Of a stretch of 62,009 bases of DNA, positions 48,301 through 54,300 are shown piece after piece; the stretch's first letter is position 1; each line of letters opens with the position of its first letter. Position numbers: made by a program. The stretch is taken from the NCBI GenBank assembly GCA_040754455.1, contig JBFMCP010000018.1, positions 1 to 62,009 on the forward strand, written 5' to 3'. This DNA comes from Nitrospirota bacterium. GTDB lineage: Bacteria; Nitrospirota; Thermodesulfovibrionia; Thermodesulfovibrionales; Dissulfurispiraceae.

Positions 48301-51300
48301 CTCGACCAGGTACTGATCAATCTCGCCACAAACGCCAGGGATGCAATGCCTGATGGTGGAATACTGTCCATTGAGATCGGCGCTGTCGAGATCGATGCTG
48401 CGCATGCCCGAACGCTCATGCTTGCCAAACCGGGGGCATACGCCCTCATTTCTGTCGCTGATACCGGGTCAGGCATGGATGAGGAGACGAAGGAGAAGAT
48501 ATTCGAGCCCTTCTTTACAACAAAGGAGGTCGGCAAGGGTACCGGCCTCGGCCTTGCTATTGTGTACGGTATCGTCAAACAGCACGATGGCATCATCACT
48601 GTCTACAGCGAGCCGGGAAGGGGCTCGACGTTCAGGATCTACCTCCCCCTCGCTGCAGCGTCTGCTGAAGAGATAAAAACGACCGACGTGCCGCTCCCCA
48701 AGGGCGGGACAGAAACCGTTCTTCTTGCAGAGGATGACCACGCCGCGCGGGAAGTGATAAAAACAACACTCGAAGGCACCGGATACACGGTCATCGAGAC
48801 GGCCGACGGAGGTGACGCCCTCGCCGCATTTGAAAGGCATCAGGGAGCCGTACACCTTCTCCTCTCCGATGTCGTGATGCCGGGGATGAACGGCAAGGAG
48901 CTTTATGAACAGATTAAAAAAGTAAAGCCCGATATACGGGCCCTCTTTATCAGCGGCTACACTGCAGACATCCTCAACAAGAAGGGAGTCCTGGAGCCGG
49001 GCATCAACTTTATCTCAAAGCCGGTCTCGCCTCATGACCTCCTCAGGAAAATAAGGGAAGTGCTCGACCGATAAATGGAGCGAGCAGGGCTACTCAGACA
49101 CAAGCTGCTTTGAGATGAACTTATACGTGCTTGAGAGTGCATCGTCAGGCAAGACTTTATCGGTCTCCACCGTTAATTCAGGACTGAGCGGCTCTTCATA
49201 CGGCACCTGTACGCCCGGTACCGGCCACCCGGCCTTCCCCTTCTGGTAAATATCTTTCGGCGCACCATGGGCATCCTTGCGGGAGCGCTCTCTCTCGGTA
49301 CATACGGCGAGAGCGCACTTCAGATAGATTTCCTTGAAGCGGGGGATCGTGCTCCGCGCGAGTTCACGCCACTTCCTCAAATTTCCCGTTGCATCGATGA
49401 TGACATGGTGCCCCTGCTCCGAAAGGATCTTGGCGGTATAAACGATAGCACGGTACACCACATCCCGCTCCGCTTCCGAATACGTAGGTTCAGGGGTAAC
49501 GATCCTTCTCAGTTCATCCATGCGGAGGATGACGAAATCGGGGAAGCGATGCTTGATGCCTTCAGCAATGGTGCTCTTACCGCTTCCTGGTAGTCCGGTT
49601 ATCCATATCACGAGACCGTTCATGGATAAAGTATACCTCAAAAACAGCCATCGGCATTCGGTTGTCAGCTAGCAGCCTTCAGAGGCACGGTATATCATTT
49701 CTTATTCTGTATGCTGAGGGCTGAACACCGACGGCTAATTACCGTCTTATTGTGTTTTGGGACTATATTGGCGCTTGAGCCAGCGGCTGAGGCCGTCGAG
49801 GCCGGGGAAAAGCACCCGTTCGGTAATATTCGCCTGGTCGAGCTTGTCGCGGATCTCCCACTTCAGCTCCGCAGGAATAATGATTTTGCGCCACAGTTCT
49901 GGGTAGTCCTTCATCCAGTCATCAAGCACATCCTTGGAGGTGGACATGACCGAAAAGAGGGCGAACTGGTTCACGATCCGGTCATCCATCGAAGGTGGCT
50001 CGATGAAGAGGACAAAATCGTTCCTGCAGAGATTGGACAGCTCCTCCAAGGACTTAACCGCCTCGGCAAGCATATCGACGGTAAAGACGTTCGCTCCCTC
50101 CTGATCGAGCTGAAACCTGAGCCGCTCGGGGAGCAGACGGTGGGCGTGGACATAATTGACGGCCCAGATAACACCGTCGATATCGAATTTCTCTATATTC
50201 GCGGTCGCAAAATGCATAGCAACAAGAGGGGAGTAGGTCCAGTCGAGCAATCGTGAGGGGAGGCCATAGTGCTGCGCGACAGAGAGCCAGTGCCATACCG
50301 AGTCATGCTGCACCACATTCCGCAATGCATATTTCCTGAAGTTCCTCAAAAGGTGGCGCTCGAGATCTTCGAACTTACCCCCCAGCCTGATCAGAGTCGT
50401 CTGGAGCGGATATTGGGCATCCGAGAGTCCTCTGAAGGCGTAGCGAGAACGGAAGCGTCCCAGTTCAGGGTTCCAGGAATCTTCGTAGAGCTGCTCCTGG
50501 AGCTCGTGCCAGCTGCTGATTCGTATAATGTTTGTAGTCATCGCAGAGCAAAATCCTACAGAGTGGATGAGCTATTGTACCACGGCGGGAAGGAAAAAAA
50601 AGAGCAGATCATAAGAAGTGAAGCTGCTGCAATCAAAACGCGAGTTCCCCTGCCATTCTCCGCTTCAGAAATATACAGACCCGCTATTCAGTCAATTATA
50701 TCACAAAAAAACGGCCCTTCTATTTTGGGCATTGATCTTTGAGCCCTGCCACTTGACACGCTTTTTGGAGCTGATATTATATAGTCAAAACCTATGAATA
50801 ACCGATTATTTATAGGAATGTAACTACAGGAGAAGGGAGGTGAGAGCGGATGAAAAAGGCGTTGAGCACCAAAGCCCTTGCAAAGGAGGCATCTTTCTGG
50901 GCCGGTCTCAAGAAAGCGGCGAAGGAGCATCCCGGTAAGGTATGCCACAAGTGAAAGGGTTGAAAGAGCTGATGTTGCCGGTCAGGCAACAAATTAAAGG
51001 CAAAAGGCAGATACGTTATCGTAATGGTACGTATCTGCCGTATTTTTTTACGGAAAGAATATACGGAGACCGGTAAATCCCATGTCCACAACCAATGCTT
51101 TTGATTTTTTCGTCCAGTGGCATCTTACGGAGCAATGCAATCTCGGGTGTACCCACTGCTATCAGACCGGCATCAGGCACCAAGAGCTTTCATTGCCCGA
51201 GATAGTGGAGACGCTCGCTGAAATAGAGGAGATGCTGGGTGACTGGAAAGAGTCCTATGCCATCGATCTTTCACCGAGCATTAATGTCACCGGCGGAGAG

Positions 51301-54300
51301 CCCTTCCTGCGCAGCGACTTTTTCGATATTCTCAAAGCCATGGGCGCGCGGGGGTTTGCGCTCTATGTCCTTACGAACGGCACTCTCATTGATGATCAGA
51401 AGGCGAAAGCGCTCTCTGATCTTGGCGTAAAAGGTGTCCAGGTGAGCATCGAGGGTCCCGAGGCGATCCATGAGTCGATCCGGGGAAGAGGAAGCTTTAC
51501 CGCCTCGCTGAAAGGAATTGCCCGTCTGCTTGATGCAGGGCTGAAGGTGACCCTGAACACTACGCTCTCGTCGGTGAATGCCGCGCATTTTATGGAACTG
51601 ATCGACCTCTCCTTACGCCTGGGGGTCCACCGCCTCGGTTTTTCGCGACTCGTTCCTTCGGGAAGAGGAGAGGCCATGCTCGACACCATGCTCTCTACCG
51701 AAACGGTGAGAGGACTTTATAAGCGGATTTTCTCTCAGGATACCGGTGGCCTGGAGATCGTCACCGGCGATCCCGTTGCAGCGCAACTCACGGCTCAAGA
51801 GCAGGAGGGCAGCCACAGTTCAACTCCTTCGGGAGGATGTGCAGCAGGCATATCCGGCATCACGATCCTCCCCGATGGCACACTCATCCCGTGCAGGAGG
51901 CTTCCAGTTCCTCTCGGGAATATCAAAAAAGACTCCCTGCGCGAGATATGGGCGACTTCAGAAGTTTTGGAGGCGCTGAGGGACAGGTCGCGCTATAAGG
52001 GGAAGTGCGGCGCCTGCTCCCGCTGGGCGCAGTGCAGGGGATGCAGGGCAATCGCCTATGCCTGTTCAAAGGCGAAGGGAAGCGAAGATCTGCTCGCCGA
52101 AGACCCGCAGTGCTTTATTGGCAATTAGAAAAGCAATGAGGAGCCGCTACTGTACGACTGCTTTCCCTCCTGATATACTTTTTCTAATCATTTGATCATT
52201 TCAGAGTACAAGCCAATAGAGGGAGGGAATGTTTATGTCCAAATGGATGATTGATCCTGATCATTCGGTAGCGGCTTTTGCAATACGGCATATGATGATC
52301 GCGTTTGTGCGTGGTCAATTTAATAAAATTACCGGCACGATCCAGTTCGACCCCGAGGACATTACGCGCTCCTCTGTGGAGATGGAGATCGACGTCGCGA
52401 GCCTCACGAGCGGGATTAAAAAGCGTGACGAGCACTTATTGAGCGCCGATTTCTTCGAGGTGGAAAAGTACCCGAAAATTACCTTCAAAAGTATGGGCAT
52501 CGAAAAGACCGGTACGAACAGCGGCAAAGTGACCGGCGACCTGACCATTCACGGTGTCACGCGATCCGTTACCCTTGAGGTGAGCTTTTTCGGGCCGGTG
52601 AAGAGCCCCTTCGGTGAAACGAGCATGGGGTTCAGCGCAGCAACATCGCTGAACCGGGAGGGCTTCGGCATCATGTGGAACGAGCCCATGGAAAAGGGCG
52701 GGCTCATGATCGGCAGGGATGTGGAGATCACCGTCGACATAGAGGCCGATCTCGCTGAGTAGATATGGATATATGGTGTAGAGCTCAATGGAAACAACAA
52801 GGGCCTGGTTTATTATGCCAGGCCCTTGTTATCGGAACAGTCATAATAAGAGAGCGGGTTAATCCTCGAATTTCTTGTGGCCTTTCCCTTTGCCTTTGTC
52901 CTTGTGTTTCTCTTTTTTCCACTCCTCTTTATCTTCTCTCTCTTTCTCCTTGTGCTTTTCCTTCCCGCCTTTCACCTTTTTGACTTCATCGTTGATGGCG
53001 ATGAAGCTTTTGCCCTTCGATCTCATCTCGATGACCCTTTCCGGGGCATATCCGTGGTAGTCCGAGATGAATTTGAGGTTCACGAAATTGACGATTTCAT
53101 CATCCGCGAGCCTGATGGTGCGCCACTCCTTCTTGTGCTTTTTCTTGAAATGGCCGTAGGCCTTTCCGTAGGGAGGGCCAGACACAACAGTCACCGGCAC
53201 ATAAAAAATTTCAGGACTAAGGCCGAGGCGTATGGTAATGTCGATCCACGGCATGCCGCTCCGGCGCATCTCGATGACCCGTGCATAGGGGACCCCTGCC
53301 CTCTTCGAAAGAAAGAGCACGACCGGGATCTCTTCATCAGGGATACGCCGCTCCTTGATGATGATCACTTCCCGCTCCGGGACTCTGTAGTAGTCGCCCA
53401 TGGAGAAATAAAAGCCCCTTATCCCCTCGTCTCCGATTGTTACTCCAACATCGACCCGTGCCGCGGCGCGTTCCGATAACCCCCATACCGAGAGCACCAT
53501 CACCATGATGCAAAGGTATACAATGCGCATTCTCCAACCTCCTTTTGTATCCTCTCTGCTCCACTACAGCAGACGACTGTCCGCAGTTTAAAAAATCAAG
53601 CCGCCATTTATCAAGGAACAAGTCACACTTGCACTCATGGAAAAAAACAGAATACAAGAGGAAGCGCGCTTTGATCTTGCGCTGATACCCGAATGATAGA
53701 ATTCAGCCGGCTGCCCTTATCCTGCTCCAAAGAAGGCAGAATCGCTCAATTCCCTGCTCCACCTCTGTCAAAAAAGCTCTTTTCTGTTCGATCTCCTCTT
53801 TCCGTGCATTCAGGTCCTTGATAAGGGAGTCGAATACGGCCCTACAACATCCCGTAGCGCCGAAGTTTTATTGACTGATACCGTCTCCATGCGCTTCCCC
53901 CGAACGGATAGAATCACTGCTGTAGGTATAATTAATCGGAAAAAGAGCGACTTACCTTTACCTTCAGAGACAAGGGGAAGGTGTGGATTGCAGCGGCCGG
54001 GGCTATTTCAGCTGTTCGGCCTCGGCCTGGCTGAGGATGCGGCGCGCCTCTGCAAGTCGTTTATAGTATTTTTTAATCTTTTCCGCGTCTTTTGCCACGG
54101 TAGCCTTGAAGAGGTCTCCCTCGAGCTCAGCAACTTCGAGGCGTTTATAGTAATCCAATGACTCTTTCAGGTGAGCAAGCACGATCTTTCCTGTCAGGAC
54201 AGGGTGGTTGTTGGTGACATTGGCATCCTTGAACCTTGTGCCATGCTCGAGCTCGACCTCGAGGCCTTTGCGGAAATCCTCCAGGTCGATATTCATGCCG

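Follow-up and report, generated by a model that had tools for sequence, protein, structure and literature searches.

The question raised by this locus is whether a short open reading frame in front of a radical SAM/SPASM enzyme, called as a 34-residue peptide, ends at its TGA, and what its product might be for. The window, that is the whole stretch of DNA analysed, comprises positions 1-62,009 (forward strand) of contig JBFMCP010000018.1 in assembly GCA_040754455.1, from a Nitrospirota bacterium (Dissulfurispiraceae). The initial annotation described a 34-residue call that runs on through two in-frame TGA codons to a third stop, and all of these lie where it placed them; the enzyme gene is just downstream as described, at a distance of 109 nt and not 110. 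The features are as follows.

50753..50780, forward strand: candidate promoter of the sigma-70 type, TTGACA-16 nt-TATTAT, and a TG ahead of the second hexamer.
50835..50842, forward strand: Shine-Dalgarno-like GGGAGGTG, 7 nt ahead of the ATG, read directly from the sequence.
50850..50972, forward strand: peptide gene, ATG at 50850, 40 residues plus stop as read from the sequence.
50952..50954, forward strand: first UGA, read as Sec (U35) on the codon 35 counts in 146 copies.
50961..50963, forward strand: second UGA, read as Sec (U38) on the codon 38 counts in 146 copies.
50970..50972, forward strand: true stop codon (TGA in the source genome), from the stop counts in 146 copies.
50974..50990, forward strand: SECIS-like hairpin, a 6-bp stem of GTTGCC (50974-79) and GGCAAC (50985-90) around the loop GGTCA.
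51006..51049, forward strand: intrinsic terminator between the peptide and enzyme genes, arms GGCAGATACGT and ACGTATCTGCC, then a T-run.
51082..52128, forward strand: radical SAM/SPASM enzyme, 348 aa, with Radical_SAM and SPASM domains and their Cys motifs.
52229..52762, forward strand: YceI-like gene downstream, an occasional companion and not part of the core.

With Sec at the in-frame TGAs, the product reads MKKALSTKALAKEASFWAGLKKAAKEHPGKVCHK-U-KG-U-KS, in short MKK…NPGKVCHK-U-KG-U-KS-stop (50850-50972, forward strand). A Lys-rich N-terminal part with the motifs KEAxFW and NPGK is followed by the C-terminal core, C32-H-K-U35-K-G-U38-K-S40. A strict DNA word that permitted TGA, TGC or TGT at both sites was found in 93 of the 317 genomes of the order, once in each, against 0 matches for the reversed pattern in the same 317 genomes, and 110 of them were matched by a profile that ignored the stops and was built from the 34 residues ahead of the first TGA. 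The peptide motif recurs far beyond chance. Its wide occurrence, put earlier at 119 or more stretches, was repeated by a global word scan with at least 120; the matches listed, 81 in 80 loci, comprise 74 family copies and 7 chance ones. Most likely, this small gene encodes a two-Sec peptide of 40 residues that is widely conserved.

About one third of the 317 genomes carry an enzyme orthologue (109, partial ones included; the earlier figure was 107), with identities of 55-69% that set the orthologues cleanly apart from paralogues at 33-42%, which are also present in most genomes of the order. Peptide and enzyme occur together in 104 genomes, the peptide only in 6, the enzyme only in 5 and neither in 202, a table that overstates significance because relatives are not independent. 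The peptide gene lies directly upstream of the enzyme gene, on the same strand, in 68 of the 93 copies (median gap about 130 nt) and, among the matches listed in the global sample, in 53 of 74; the remaining 25 of the 93 are not followed by the enzyme gene, and 4 of them sit at a contig end. The partial adjacency noted earlier (11 of 20 loci) extends to 17 of the 30 best orthologue loci, own locus included, with the peptide within 700 nt upstream. All 13 remaining genomes have the peptide elsewhere, and some 20 genomes keep the two genes unlinked. In one genome (G057) both genes have decayed; another (G272), with no enzyme orthologue, holds a remnant of the peptide gene only. A link that had rested on adjacency is thus carried also by the patchy distribution common to both genes, even where they are unlinked, and by their joint decay in G057. 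At the level of gene content, peptide and enzyme are demonstrably coupled.

The enzyme has no N-terminal extension and starts 18 residues before the radical SAM motif, CxxxCxxC at C19/C23/C26, while seven conserved SPASM cysteines (C253, C271, C309, C312, C318, C321 and C344) follow. Pfam recovers Radical_SAM, SPASM and Fer4_12 and no family beyond these generic domains, and the enzyme falls below every NCBIfam cut-off; together with the peptide, for which NCBIfam gives no family match at E up to 1 and Pfam none at its cut-off, this bears out the earlier description of a pair without a named family. Over its full length the enzyme is matched best, among the NCBIfam models, by AhbD (187 bits) and NirJ2 (168 bits). 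An assignment to AhbD heme b synthase (TIGR04545) was rejected, the 187 bits standing against a cut-off of 500. Some orthologues have been named 'AdoMet-dependent heme synthase' by JGI. Among solved structures, those nearest to the enzyme are the peptide maturases SkfB, SuiB and PqqE, followed by anSME.

Several known systems resemble the pair in part. The thio(seleno)oxazole RiPP of SbtA/SbtM, or 'selenobacteriocin', is described in PMC9204691 as the first RiPP with SeCys that a radical SAM enzyme installs. The system (TIGR04081, TIGR04082) has in common with the present one a short precursor bearing two or more in-frame Sec codons, an adjoining radical SAM/SPASM maturase and a home in anaerobic bacteria. 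However, the peptide has no TIGR04081 match at E up to 1, its motif is C-x-x-U-x-x-U-K-S-stop (CxKUxxUKS) and not the GGUG or SGUG of SbtA, the hosts are mainly Nitrospirota, and the enzyme scores 138 bits against the TIGR04082 cut-off of 350. It lacks the N-terminal ~200 residues of SbtM, since it aligned only to model positions 199-515 of 516. With motif, model scores, alignment span and hosts all differing, the chemistry is probably different as well. The UXX-star and KCU-star families (NF041211, NF041212, NF033934) have Sec no more than 3 residues from the C-terminus, and the peptide, ending U38-K-S-stop, has it there too. In these families the SECIS is placed beyond the stop codon, as it must be with Sec so close to the end. 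Unlike them, the peptide has two Sec residues plus a Cys and a dedicated radical SAM partner, and no NCBIfam model, NF041211, NF041212 and relatives included, matches it at E up to 1.

The thioether-forming SPASM maturases of Cys-rich precursors (SCIFF/CteB, PapB, Tte1186, SkfB) share the SPASM architecture of the enzyme; of the solved structures SkfB matches it best, and its fold matches include CteB entries. In one study, PapB and Tte1186 accept synthetic Sec peptides, bind Se at an iron of the auxiliary cluster and yield selenoethers in vitro (PMC10177961). Their natural substrates, however, have Cys and not Sec, and the enzyme reaches none of the curated cut-offs of these families. In the systems for peptide-derived cofactors, PqqA/PqqE and MftA/MftC, a SPASM enzyme likewise goes with a short precursor that carries its core at the C-terminal end, and the product stays inside the cell. 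PqqE ranks second among the solved matches by sequence, but the enzyme scores 133 bits against a cut-off of 265 for the mycofactocin maturase MftC and 84 against 381 for PqqE, and the neighbourhood has no conserved chaperone of the PqqD or MftB type and no conserved peptidase. For AhbD and NirJ, both scores lie far below cut-offs of 500, and the enzyme is distributed as the peptide is, not as heme synthesis is. The pair has the layout of a RiPP precursor and its SPASM maturase: a paired short ORF, CxxxCxxC and the seven-Cys SPASM motif. A 2026 review table that covers the Haft and Tolstoy families has no entry like it. The probable two-Sec peptide and its radical SAM enzyme together suggest a second family of modified peptides that contain selenium, one so far undescribed.

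The reading preferred here, with a probability of roughly 0.6, is that of a Sec-bearing precursor and a dedicated radical SAM/SPASM maturase, a system akin in kind to SbtA/SbtM, which together would yield a selenium-containing modified peptide or a peptide-derived cofactor. The peptide gene would be transcribed from its own promoter candidate (11 of 12 consensus positions, a consensus match in the source genome only) to its own terminator; precursor genes of modified peptides often have a promoter and terminator of their own. The ribosome would decode both internal UGAs as selenocysteine, with one hairpin past the true stop, presumably bound by SelB, directing both insertions, and the resulting basic peptide of 40 residues would end in Cys-x-x-Sec-x-x-Sec-Lys-Ser. 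The conserved N-terminal part would most likely be a leader bound by the enzyme, which, we infer, modifies the peptide. A selenolate or thiolate of the core could be taken onto the auxiliary Fe-S cluster, and radical chemistry on the C-terminal core might then produce, for example, a seleno- or thioether link or a heterocycle. The end product may be an intracellular selenium-containing modified peptide, or a redox or metal-binding cofactor derived from it.

It is possible, if doubtful, that the CxxUxxU tail gives rise to a new, obligately Se-dependent product other than selenooxazole, acting as an intracellular redox or metal cofactor; candidates are a ring bridged by a selenoether or by Se-Se or Se-S, or a set of selenolate ligands to a metal centre. 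If this were true, such a cofactor would occur in roughly one in three species of the order (Nitrospirota) and in some Desulfobacterota. A bolder version would have the peptide as a ribosomally made selenium donor that is consumed by the enzyme.

The alternative that survives best, though it is unlikely, is a genuine double-Sec micro-selenoprotein that is the enzyme's partner and not its substrate, the enzyme acting on another, small-molecule substrate. Such a partner might serve as a CxxUxxU module for redox work or metal binding, as an Fe-S ligand or as a sacrificial selenium donor. CxxU and UxxU are motifs of the redox type among the selenoproteins in the 2026 review table, and the best HMMs of the enzyme, AhbD and NirJ, are those of tetrapyrrole enzymes; every AhbD and NirJ score is nevertheless far under its cut-off, and the nearest solved structures are peptide maturases. 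The surroundings of the pair would suit a partner in that they hold no conserved peptidase, transporter, exporter or recognisable leader-binding (RRE) domain; no search aimed at an RRE was made. No conserved small neighbour gene was found beside the pair. Stress and redox genes often adjoin (DUF255 thioredoxin-like, DJ-1, pyridine nucleotide-disulfide oxidoreductase, SOD), and five unlinked copies lie beside selenium genes that each score above their NCBIfam cut-off, namely SelD with YedF (L038, L054), SelD (L058) or SelB (L056, L066). Against this, a short gene ahead of a SPASM enzyme is the usual layout of a precursor, and the conserved N-terminal part of 34 residues, with motifs of its own, is leader-like.

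There is very little chance that translation ends at the first TGA, and that the conserved stretch behind a 34-residue peptide is an RNA element, a terminator or a protein-binding site. All 53 database homologues (53/53) are annotated in that way, at 29-49 residues, i.e. cut at the first TGA; the ORF is indeed trailed by a conserved hairpin and terminator; and the wobble base of codon 31 is constrained at the nucleotide level, which argues for RNA-level selection nearby. A true stop, however, should rotate as the third one does: among 146 distinct homologous copies the last stop is TGA in 69, TAA in 61 and TAG in 16, whereas codon 35 is TGA in 142 (TGT 2, TGC 1, TAA 1, never TAG) and codon 38 is TGA in 143 (TGT 2, TAA 1). 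The copy with TAA at the first site (L138) is a decayed gene, and the one with TAA at the second (L121) comes from a genome (G038) that has an intact second copy (L141). Moreover, the 18 nt from the first TGA to the last stop, which lie outside the hairpin, vary codon-wise, with Ser as AGY or TCN and Lys as AAG or AAA. At position 37, 141 of the 146 copies have Ser, Gly or Ala, with synonymous variants (Ser AGY 69, TCC 3); Lys39 is AAG in 119 and AAA in 26, one copy having AGA (Arg); and Ser40 is AGY in 130 (AGC 98, AGT 32) and TCN in 13, with Thr in 3. Cys codons replace both TGAs in two paralogues (L197, L270), and with one mixed Cys/Sec copy (L259) they are rare, 3 of the 146; in the Cys/Cys copies the GGUC loop of the hairpin is altered, to CCUC and CGUC respectively.

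Present in the source genome are selA, selB, tRNA-Sec and two selD genes of the Sec type with an in-frame TGA, and its FdhA also has an in-frame TGA; the presence of selB does not discriminate, since 293 of the 317 genomes of the order have it. The hairpin itself begins soon after the true stop; its distance from the second UGA is 10 nt, not the 12 first given, while the 6-bp stem and the compensated changes on both arms stand. Both-sided changes occur at 5 of the 6 pairs (pair 38-44 being CG in 61, UA in 24 and UG in 6), the observed score was reached by 0 of 500 shuffles, and the loop GGTC is conserved at 90% or more; no Rfam family matched. The loop lies at +20..24 from the second UGA and +29..33 from the first, a spacing that matches the genome's own SECIS loops in SelD (+21..23) and FdhA (+27..29). 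A single hairpin is assumed to serve the two UGAs, which are 9 nt apart; in some loci of one family it lies 10-27 nt further downstream. The inner TGAs first seen in 11 of 11 loci, with TGA or TAA as the final stop, hold in 142 and 143 of 146 copies, among which the final stop can also be TAG. The 2026 review table includes other selenoproteins with a UxxU motif. The Sec reading proposed at the outset is upheld by the TGAs fixed at both sites, the rotating last stop and the codon-type change behind the TGAs, and further by the covarying hairpin, the Cys codons and the Sec machinery genes. By these comparative signatures of coding and of Sec insertion, the small gene qualifies as a real selenoprotein gene.

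Past the SECIS-like hairpin, a strong hairpin comparable to the terminator occurs in nearly every locus among those listed; the terminator was not picked up by a simple scan because the loop limit of that scan was 8 nt. A short ORF with two UGAs, a hairpin, an intrinsic terminator and the enzyme gene would fit a selenium-sensing leader, in which the outcome of Sec insertion sets terminator read-through and enzyme expression and the peptide has no function, but this is highly improbable given that the N-terminal part is conserved at the protein level, that 25 of the 93 copies (4 at contig ends) have no enzyme behind them, that several of these converge head-on with selD or selB and have no downstream gene to regulate, and that the Cys/Cys copies would sense nothing.

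Downstream of the enzyme, sequence of 900 nt or more is available at 88 orthologue loci, of which 14 have a YceI gene, 23 an ICMT/PEMT-like methyltransferase and 51 neither.

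The locus lies on the forward strand, where a short reading frame runs through two TGA codons to a third and is followed by a radical SAM/SPASM gene (contig positions):

50753-80: candidate sigma-70 promoter, near-consensus by sequence match
50835-42 (+): strong Shine-Dalgarno-like GGGAGGTG, 7 nt before the ATG of the short ORF
50850-50972 (+): peptide ORF, which with TGA read as U gives MKKALSTKALAKEASFWAGLKKAAKEHPGKVCHK-U-KG-U-KS-stop
50952 (+): start of the first in-frame TGA
50961 (+): start of the second in-frame TGA
50970 (+): start of the closing TGA
50974-90 (+): 6-bp hairpin, GTTGCC, loop GGTCA, GGCAAC
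51006-49 (+): long terminator hairpin and T-run, between the 6-bp hairpin and the enzyme gene
51082-52128 (+): radical SAM/SPASM gene, 348 aa

The case for reading the first two TGA codons as selenocysteine (Sec) begins with the codons themselves. The initial annotation described two internal stops that are TGA and a final one that is TGA or TAA, and this pattern is borne out, with TAG added among the closing stops, when all fetched loci are pooled.

Codon usage at the end of the peptide gene (n = 146 distinct copies for every row)
Codon 35: TGA 142, TGT 2, TGC 1, TAA 1
Residue 37: Ser AGY 69, TCC 3; Gly 61; Ala 8; Glu 4; Lys 1
Codon 38: TGA 143, TGT 2, TAA 1
Residue 39: Lys AAG 119, AAA 26; Arg AGA 1
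Residue 40: Ser AGC 98, AGT 32, TCN 13; Thr 3
Closing stop: TGA 69, TAA 61, TAG 16

Serine is kept through a switch between its two codon families in this frame alone, and thus the codons after each TGA behave as codons. The single TAA at codon 35 belongs to a decaying gene that has lost its start codon and whose enzyme gene is a fragment (locus L138, genome G057), while that at codon 38 belongs to a copy counted as decaying whose genome also has an intact one (L121, G038). Other damaged copies include L137 in G102, where an apparent 9-nt deletion leaves C-R-K-U-K-S-stop beside a broken radical SAM motif, and truncated remnants at L084 (G272) and L034 (G037). The genome under study encodes selA, selB and tRNA-SeC, and in-frame TGA codons occur in its two selD genes (C21:48405-49331(-) and C37:23899-24813(+)) and, one in each, in the genes for the formate dehydrogenase alpha subunit (C17:1967-5116(-)) and a second molybdopterin oxidoreductase (C42:4867-5631(+)). 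Since selB is nearly universal across the order, its distribution is uninformative.

Codon 31 (50940-50942), which precedes the invariant Cys, has A as its wobble base in 123 of the 146 copies, whether it encodes Val, Ile, Ala, Thr or Ser; this is a nucleotide-level constraint and lies 10 nt before the first UGA. As this A also gives an out-of-frame ATG, an overlapping ORF of 44 aa starting at 50942 was examined. That ORF was rejected, as loop indels shift its frame; moreover, its wobble positions would fall on the G of each TGA, but only the last TGA varies, and the AGY/TCN switch of Ser would mean a change from Glu to Ile. A second mini-hairpin at codons 29-32 (GGCA-AGGUA-UGCC) was likewise rejected, with 0 compensatory changes and a score not above that of shuffles.

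Selenocysteine insertion at the two UGAs would need a SECIS element, and the 6-bp hairpin is the candidate. Its pairing had been said to survive changes on both arms, and in 93 aligned loci this is upheld for 5 of the 6 stem pairs (the closing pair, for example, is CG in 61, UA in 24 and UG in 6), a covariation reached by 0 of 500 shuffles; conservation of the loop GGTC reaches at least 90% in the same loci. With distances numbered from the U of UGA as 1, the predicted loops lie at +21 to +23 in both selD elements and at +27 to +29 in that of FdhA; the loop of the peptide hairpin occupies +20 to +24 relative to the second UGA and +29 to +33 relative to the first. A single hairpin thus sits inside the organism's own SECIS distance range for both UGAs, and at +11 it is too close for the third, which would thus terminate translation. 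We infer that one SECIS directs two Sec insertions, which would provide a compact natural case of one 3' UTR element serving two UGAs 9 nt apart, with a third UGA, 9 nt on, acting as the stop. When 50800-51100 was compared with Rfam (E up to 10), no SECIS family was matched, and the sRNA matches that did appear were at chance level. RNAalifold on 69 sequences (-30 to +58) gave no consensus structure, a result that is uninformative because the loops of 4 and 5 nt had been misaligned by MAFFT. A genome-wide hunt for TGA plus a GGTY-loop hairpin was noisy and was left out of the evidence.

In one family of the order (L123-L127, L131, L132 and L143) the peptide has U-S-S-U-K-S as its core, and an additional 10-27 nt separate the stop from the GGUC hairpin, with an extra small hairpin (CCCGCA-GT-TGCGGG) between the two in two of these loci. 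In a 'delta proteobacterium' clade (L145, L215, L223, L240, L247 and L259) the loop UGGAU replaces GGUC and Ser40 is TCN; the sole mixed Cys/Sec copy, L259, falls in this clade. For terminator stems covariation alone is normally expected, not shared sequence; the stems 3' of the peptide gene (51006-51049 and the equivalent place in relatives), GGCAGATATG…CATATCTGCC, are common to many distant loci, unlinked ones too.

Homologues in which Cys takes the place of Sec are few. On one contig (L197/L198) the enzyme gene is preceded by a Sec copy whose hairpin has the loop GGUC and is followed by a paralogue that has TGT at both sites and the loop CCUC. Of 12 matches to Cys forms in a metagenome scan, one is a family member, again a Cys/Cys copy behind an enzyme gene, and its loop is CGUC; L259 has Cys at position 35 and TGA at 38. 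These homologues give the classical Sec/Cys signature, and the rarity of the replacement (3/146 copies) suggests chemistry that truly requires selenium.

Orthologues of the enzyme (55-69% identity, well apart from paralogues at 33-42%) occur, if partial sequences are counted, in 109 of the 317 genomes of the order. The initial annotation had found the same peptide at 11 of the 20 best orthologue loci, and a homologous peptide gene no more than 700 nt upstream is present at 17 of the 30 best. A strict DNA word made of the last nine codons, with TGA, TGC or TGT permitted at both sites, matched once in each of 93/317 genomes, always with TGA at both sites, and its reversed-pattern control had 0 matches in the 317. 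Because this word is blind to TAA and TAG, a profile (A2) was made from just the 34 residues preceding the first TGA, and it matched in 110/317 species-level genomes; of 20 enzyme loci that lacked the strict word, 15 encoded variant peptides, with U-S-S-U-K-S and U-K-S-U-R-S among them. The distribution is patchy across families of the order (for example 20/67, 24/57, 34/54 and 0/21 genomes). Record titles among the matches listed include Nitrospirota, Thermodesulfovibrionales, Dissulfurispiraceae, Candidatus Sulfobium mesophilum, 'delta proteobacterium', Deltaproteobacteria, Syntrophorhabdaceae and one Deferribacteres-labelled MAG; these titles from the global scan are a lower bound, as more family copies exist. 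Hundreds of metagenomic sequences belong to the enzyme family. Of the peptide, 53 homologues are present in public protein collections; none is named beyond 'hypothetical protein', and all are cut at the first TGA, which leaves 29-35 residues, or 47-49 where the N-terminus is longer. This truncation makes the family invisible to current selenoproteome surveys. Against Pfam and NCBIfam the peptide had zero matches, even at E up to 1.

The link between peptide and enzyme, first drawn from adjacency, is extended by their co-occurrence. A peptide copy lies directly upstream of an orthologue on the same strand in 68 of 93 cases (median gap ~130 nt; 4 of the remaining 25 are at contig ends), and 53 of 74 copies in a global sample adjoin an enzyme gene among the matches listed. 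Across the order both genes are present in 104 genomes, the peptide alone in 6, the enzyme alone in 5 and neither in 202, counts in which relatives are not independent, so that the p-value was given no weight. The peptide-only genomes comprise a decayed copy (G057), one at a contig end (G073), a variant (G102), two with enzyme fragments at contig ends (G225 and G278) and G165, for which we have no explanation; the enzyme-only genomes are incomplete or have the locus on a short contig. In about 20 genomes both genes are present but unlinked. The distribution is patchy, and the two genes track each other. Several unlinked copies are flanked by SelD and YedF (L038, L054), by SelD (L058) or by SelB (L056, L066), all exceeding NCBIfam cut-offs, which connects the peptide with selenium by a route separate from the codon evidence. 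Moreover, these copies stand head-on to their neighbours, which argues against the peptide ORF as a mere leader ORF.

The enzyme matches Radical_SAM and SPASM in Pfam and, as the absence of a named family had implied, stays below the cut-off of every NCBIfam model (best AhbD, 187 vs 500, and SbtM, 138 vs 350). It has no N-terminal extension, and C19/C23/C26 and seven SPASM cysteines are kept in all orthologues. By sequence and predicted fold (pLDDT 77, pTM 0.80) its nearest solved relatives are SkfB, SuiB and PqqE, then anSME and CteB, which act mostly on peptides or proteins. In related maturases, according to PMC10177961, the substrate selenolate is bound by auxiliary-cluster iron and selenoethers are formed from synthetic Sec peptides. 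The closest known system is SbtA/SbtM, in which, as described in PMC9204691, a precursor from Geobacter and Desulfobacteria with at least two Sec residues and a GGUG motif is converted by a radical SAM enzyme to a thio(seleno)oxazole. The present pair fails the SbtA and SbtM models, its motif differs and its enzyme is shorter. The proposal of a selenoprotein family not yet listed stands in part: the table of prokaryotic selenoproteins in the accessible part of a 2026 review (PMC13188914) includes UxxU proteins, UXX-star families and 'selenobacteriocin' and neither a C-x-x-U-x-x-U peptide nor an entry with this radical SAM partner, but a mention in Haft and Tolstoy 2025 is possible. The main text of the BSepDB paper contains neither 'radical SAM' nor 'peptide', and searches of the literature on selenocysteine RiPPs, radical SAM selenopeptides and UXX-star turned up nothing specific to this family. 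SbtA/SbtM was the sole natural Sec-containing modified peptide system found in the literature surveyed; if the present reading is true, the pair would be a second one, unrelated to it and far more widespread.

Downstream companions vary over 88 loci (an ICMT/PEMT-like methyltransferase in 23, YceI, as in the window, in 14, neither in 51), and no conserved peptidase or exporter lies near the pair among the loci compared. The surroundings in the window, which appear unrelated to the pair, comprise a phosphonate-type binding protein, a PAS hybrid histidine kinase, an adenylyl-sulfate-kinase-like ORF, an FRG-domain protein and a Cu-Zn superoxide dismutase (45452-49074; 49093-49641 (-); 49750-50541 (-); 54473-54982 (-)). 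Copy number also varies: L156 has two tandem peptide genes ahead of a single enzyme gene, L145 and L223 are two complete pairs on the same contig, and several copies occur in G037 (L139, L140, L034) and G038 (L121, L141), with extra unlinked copies in some genomes.
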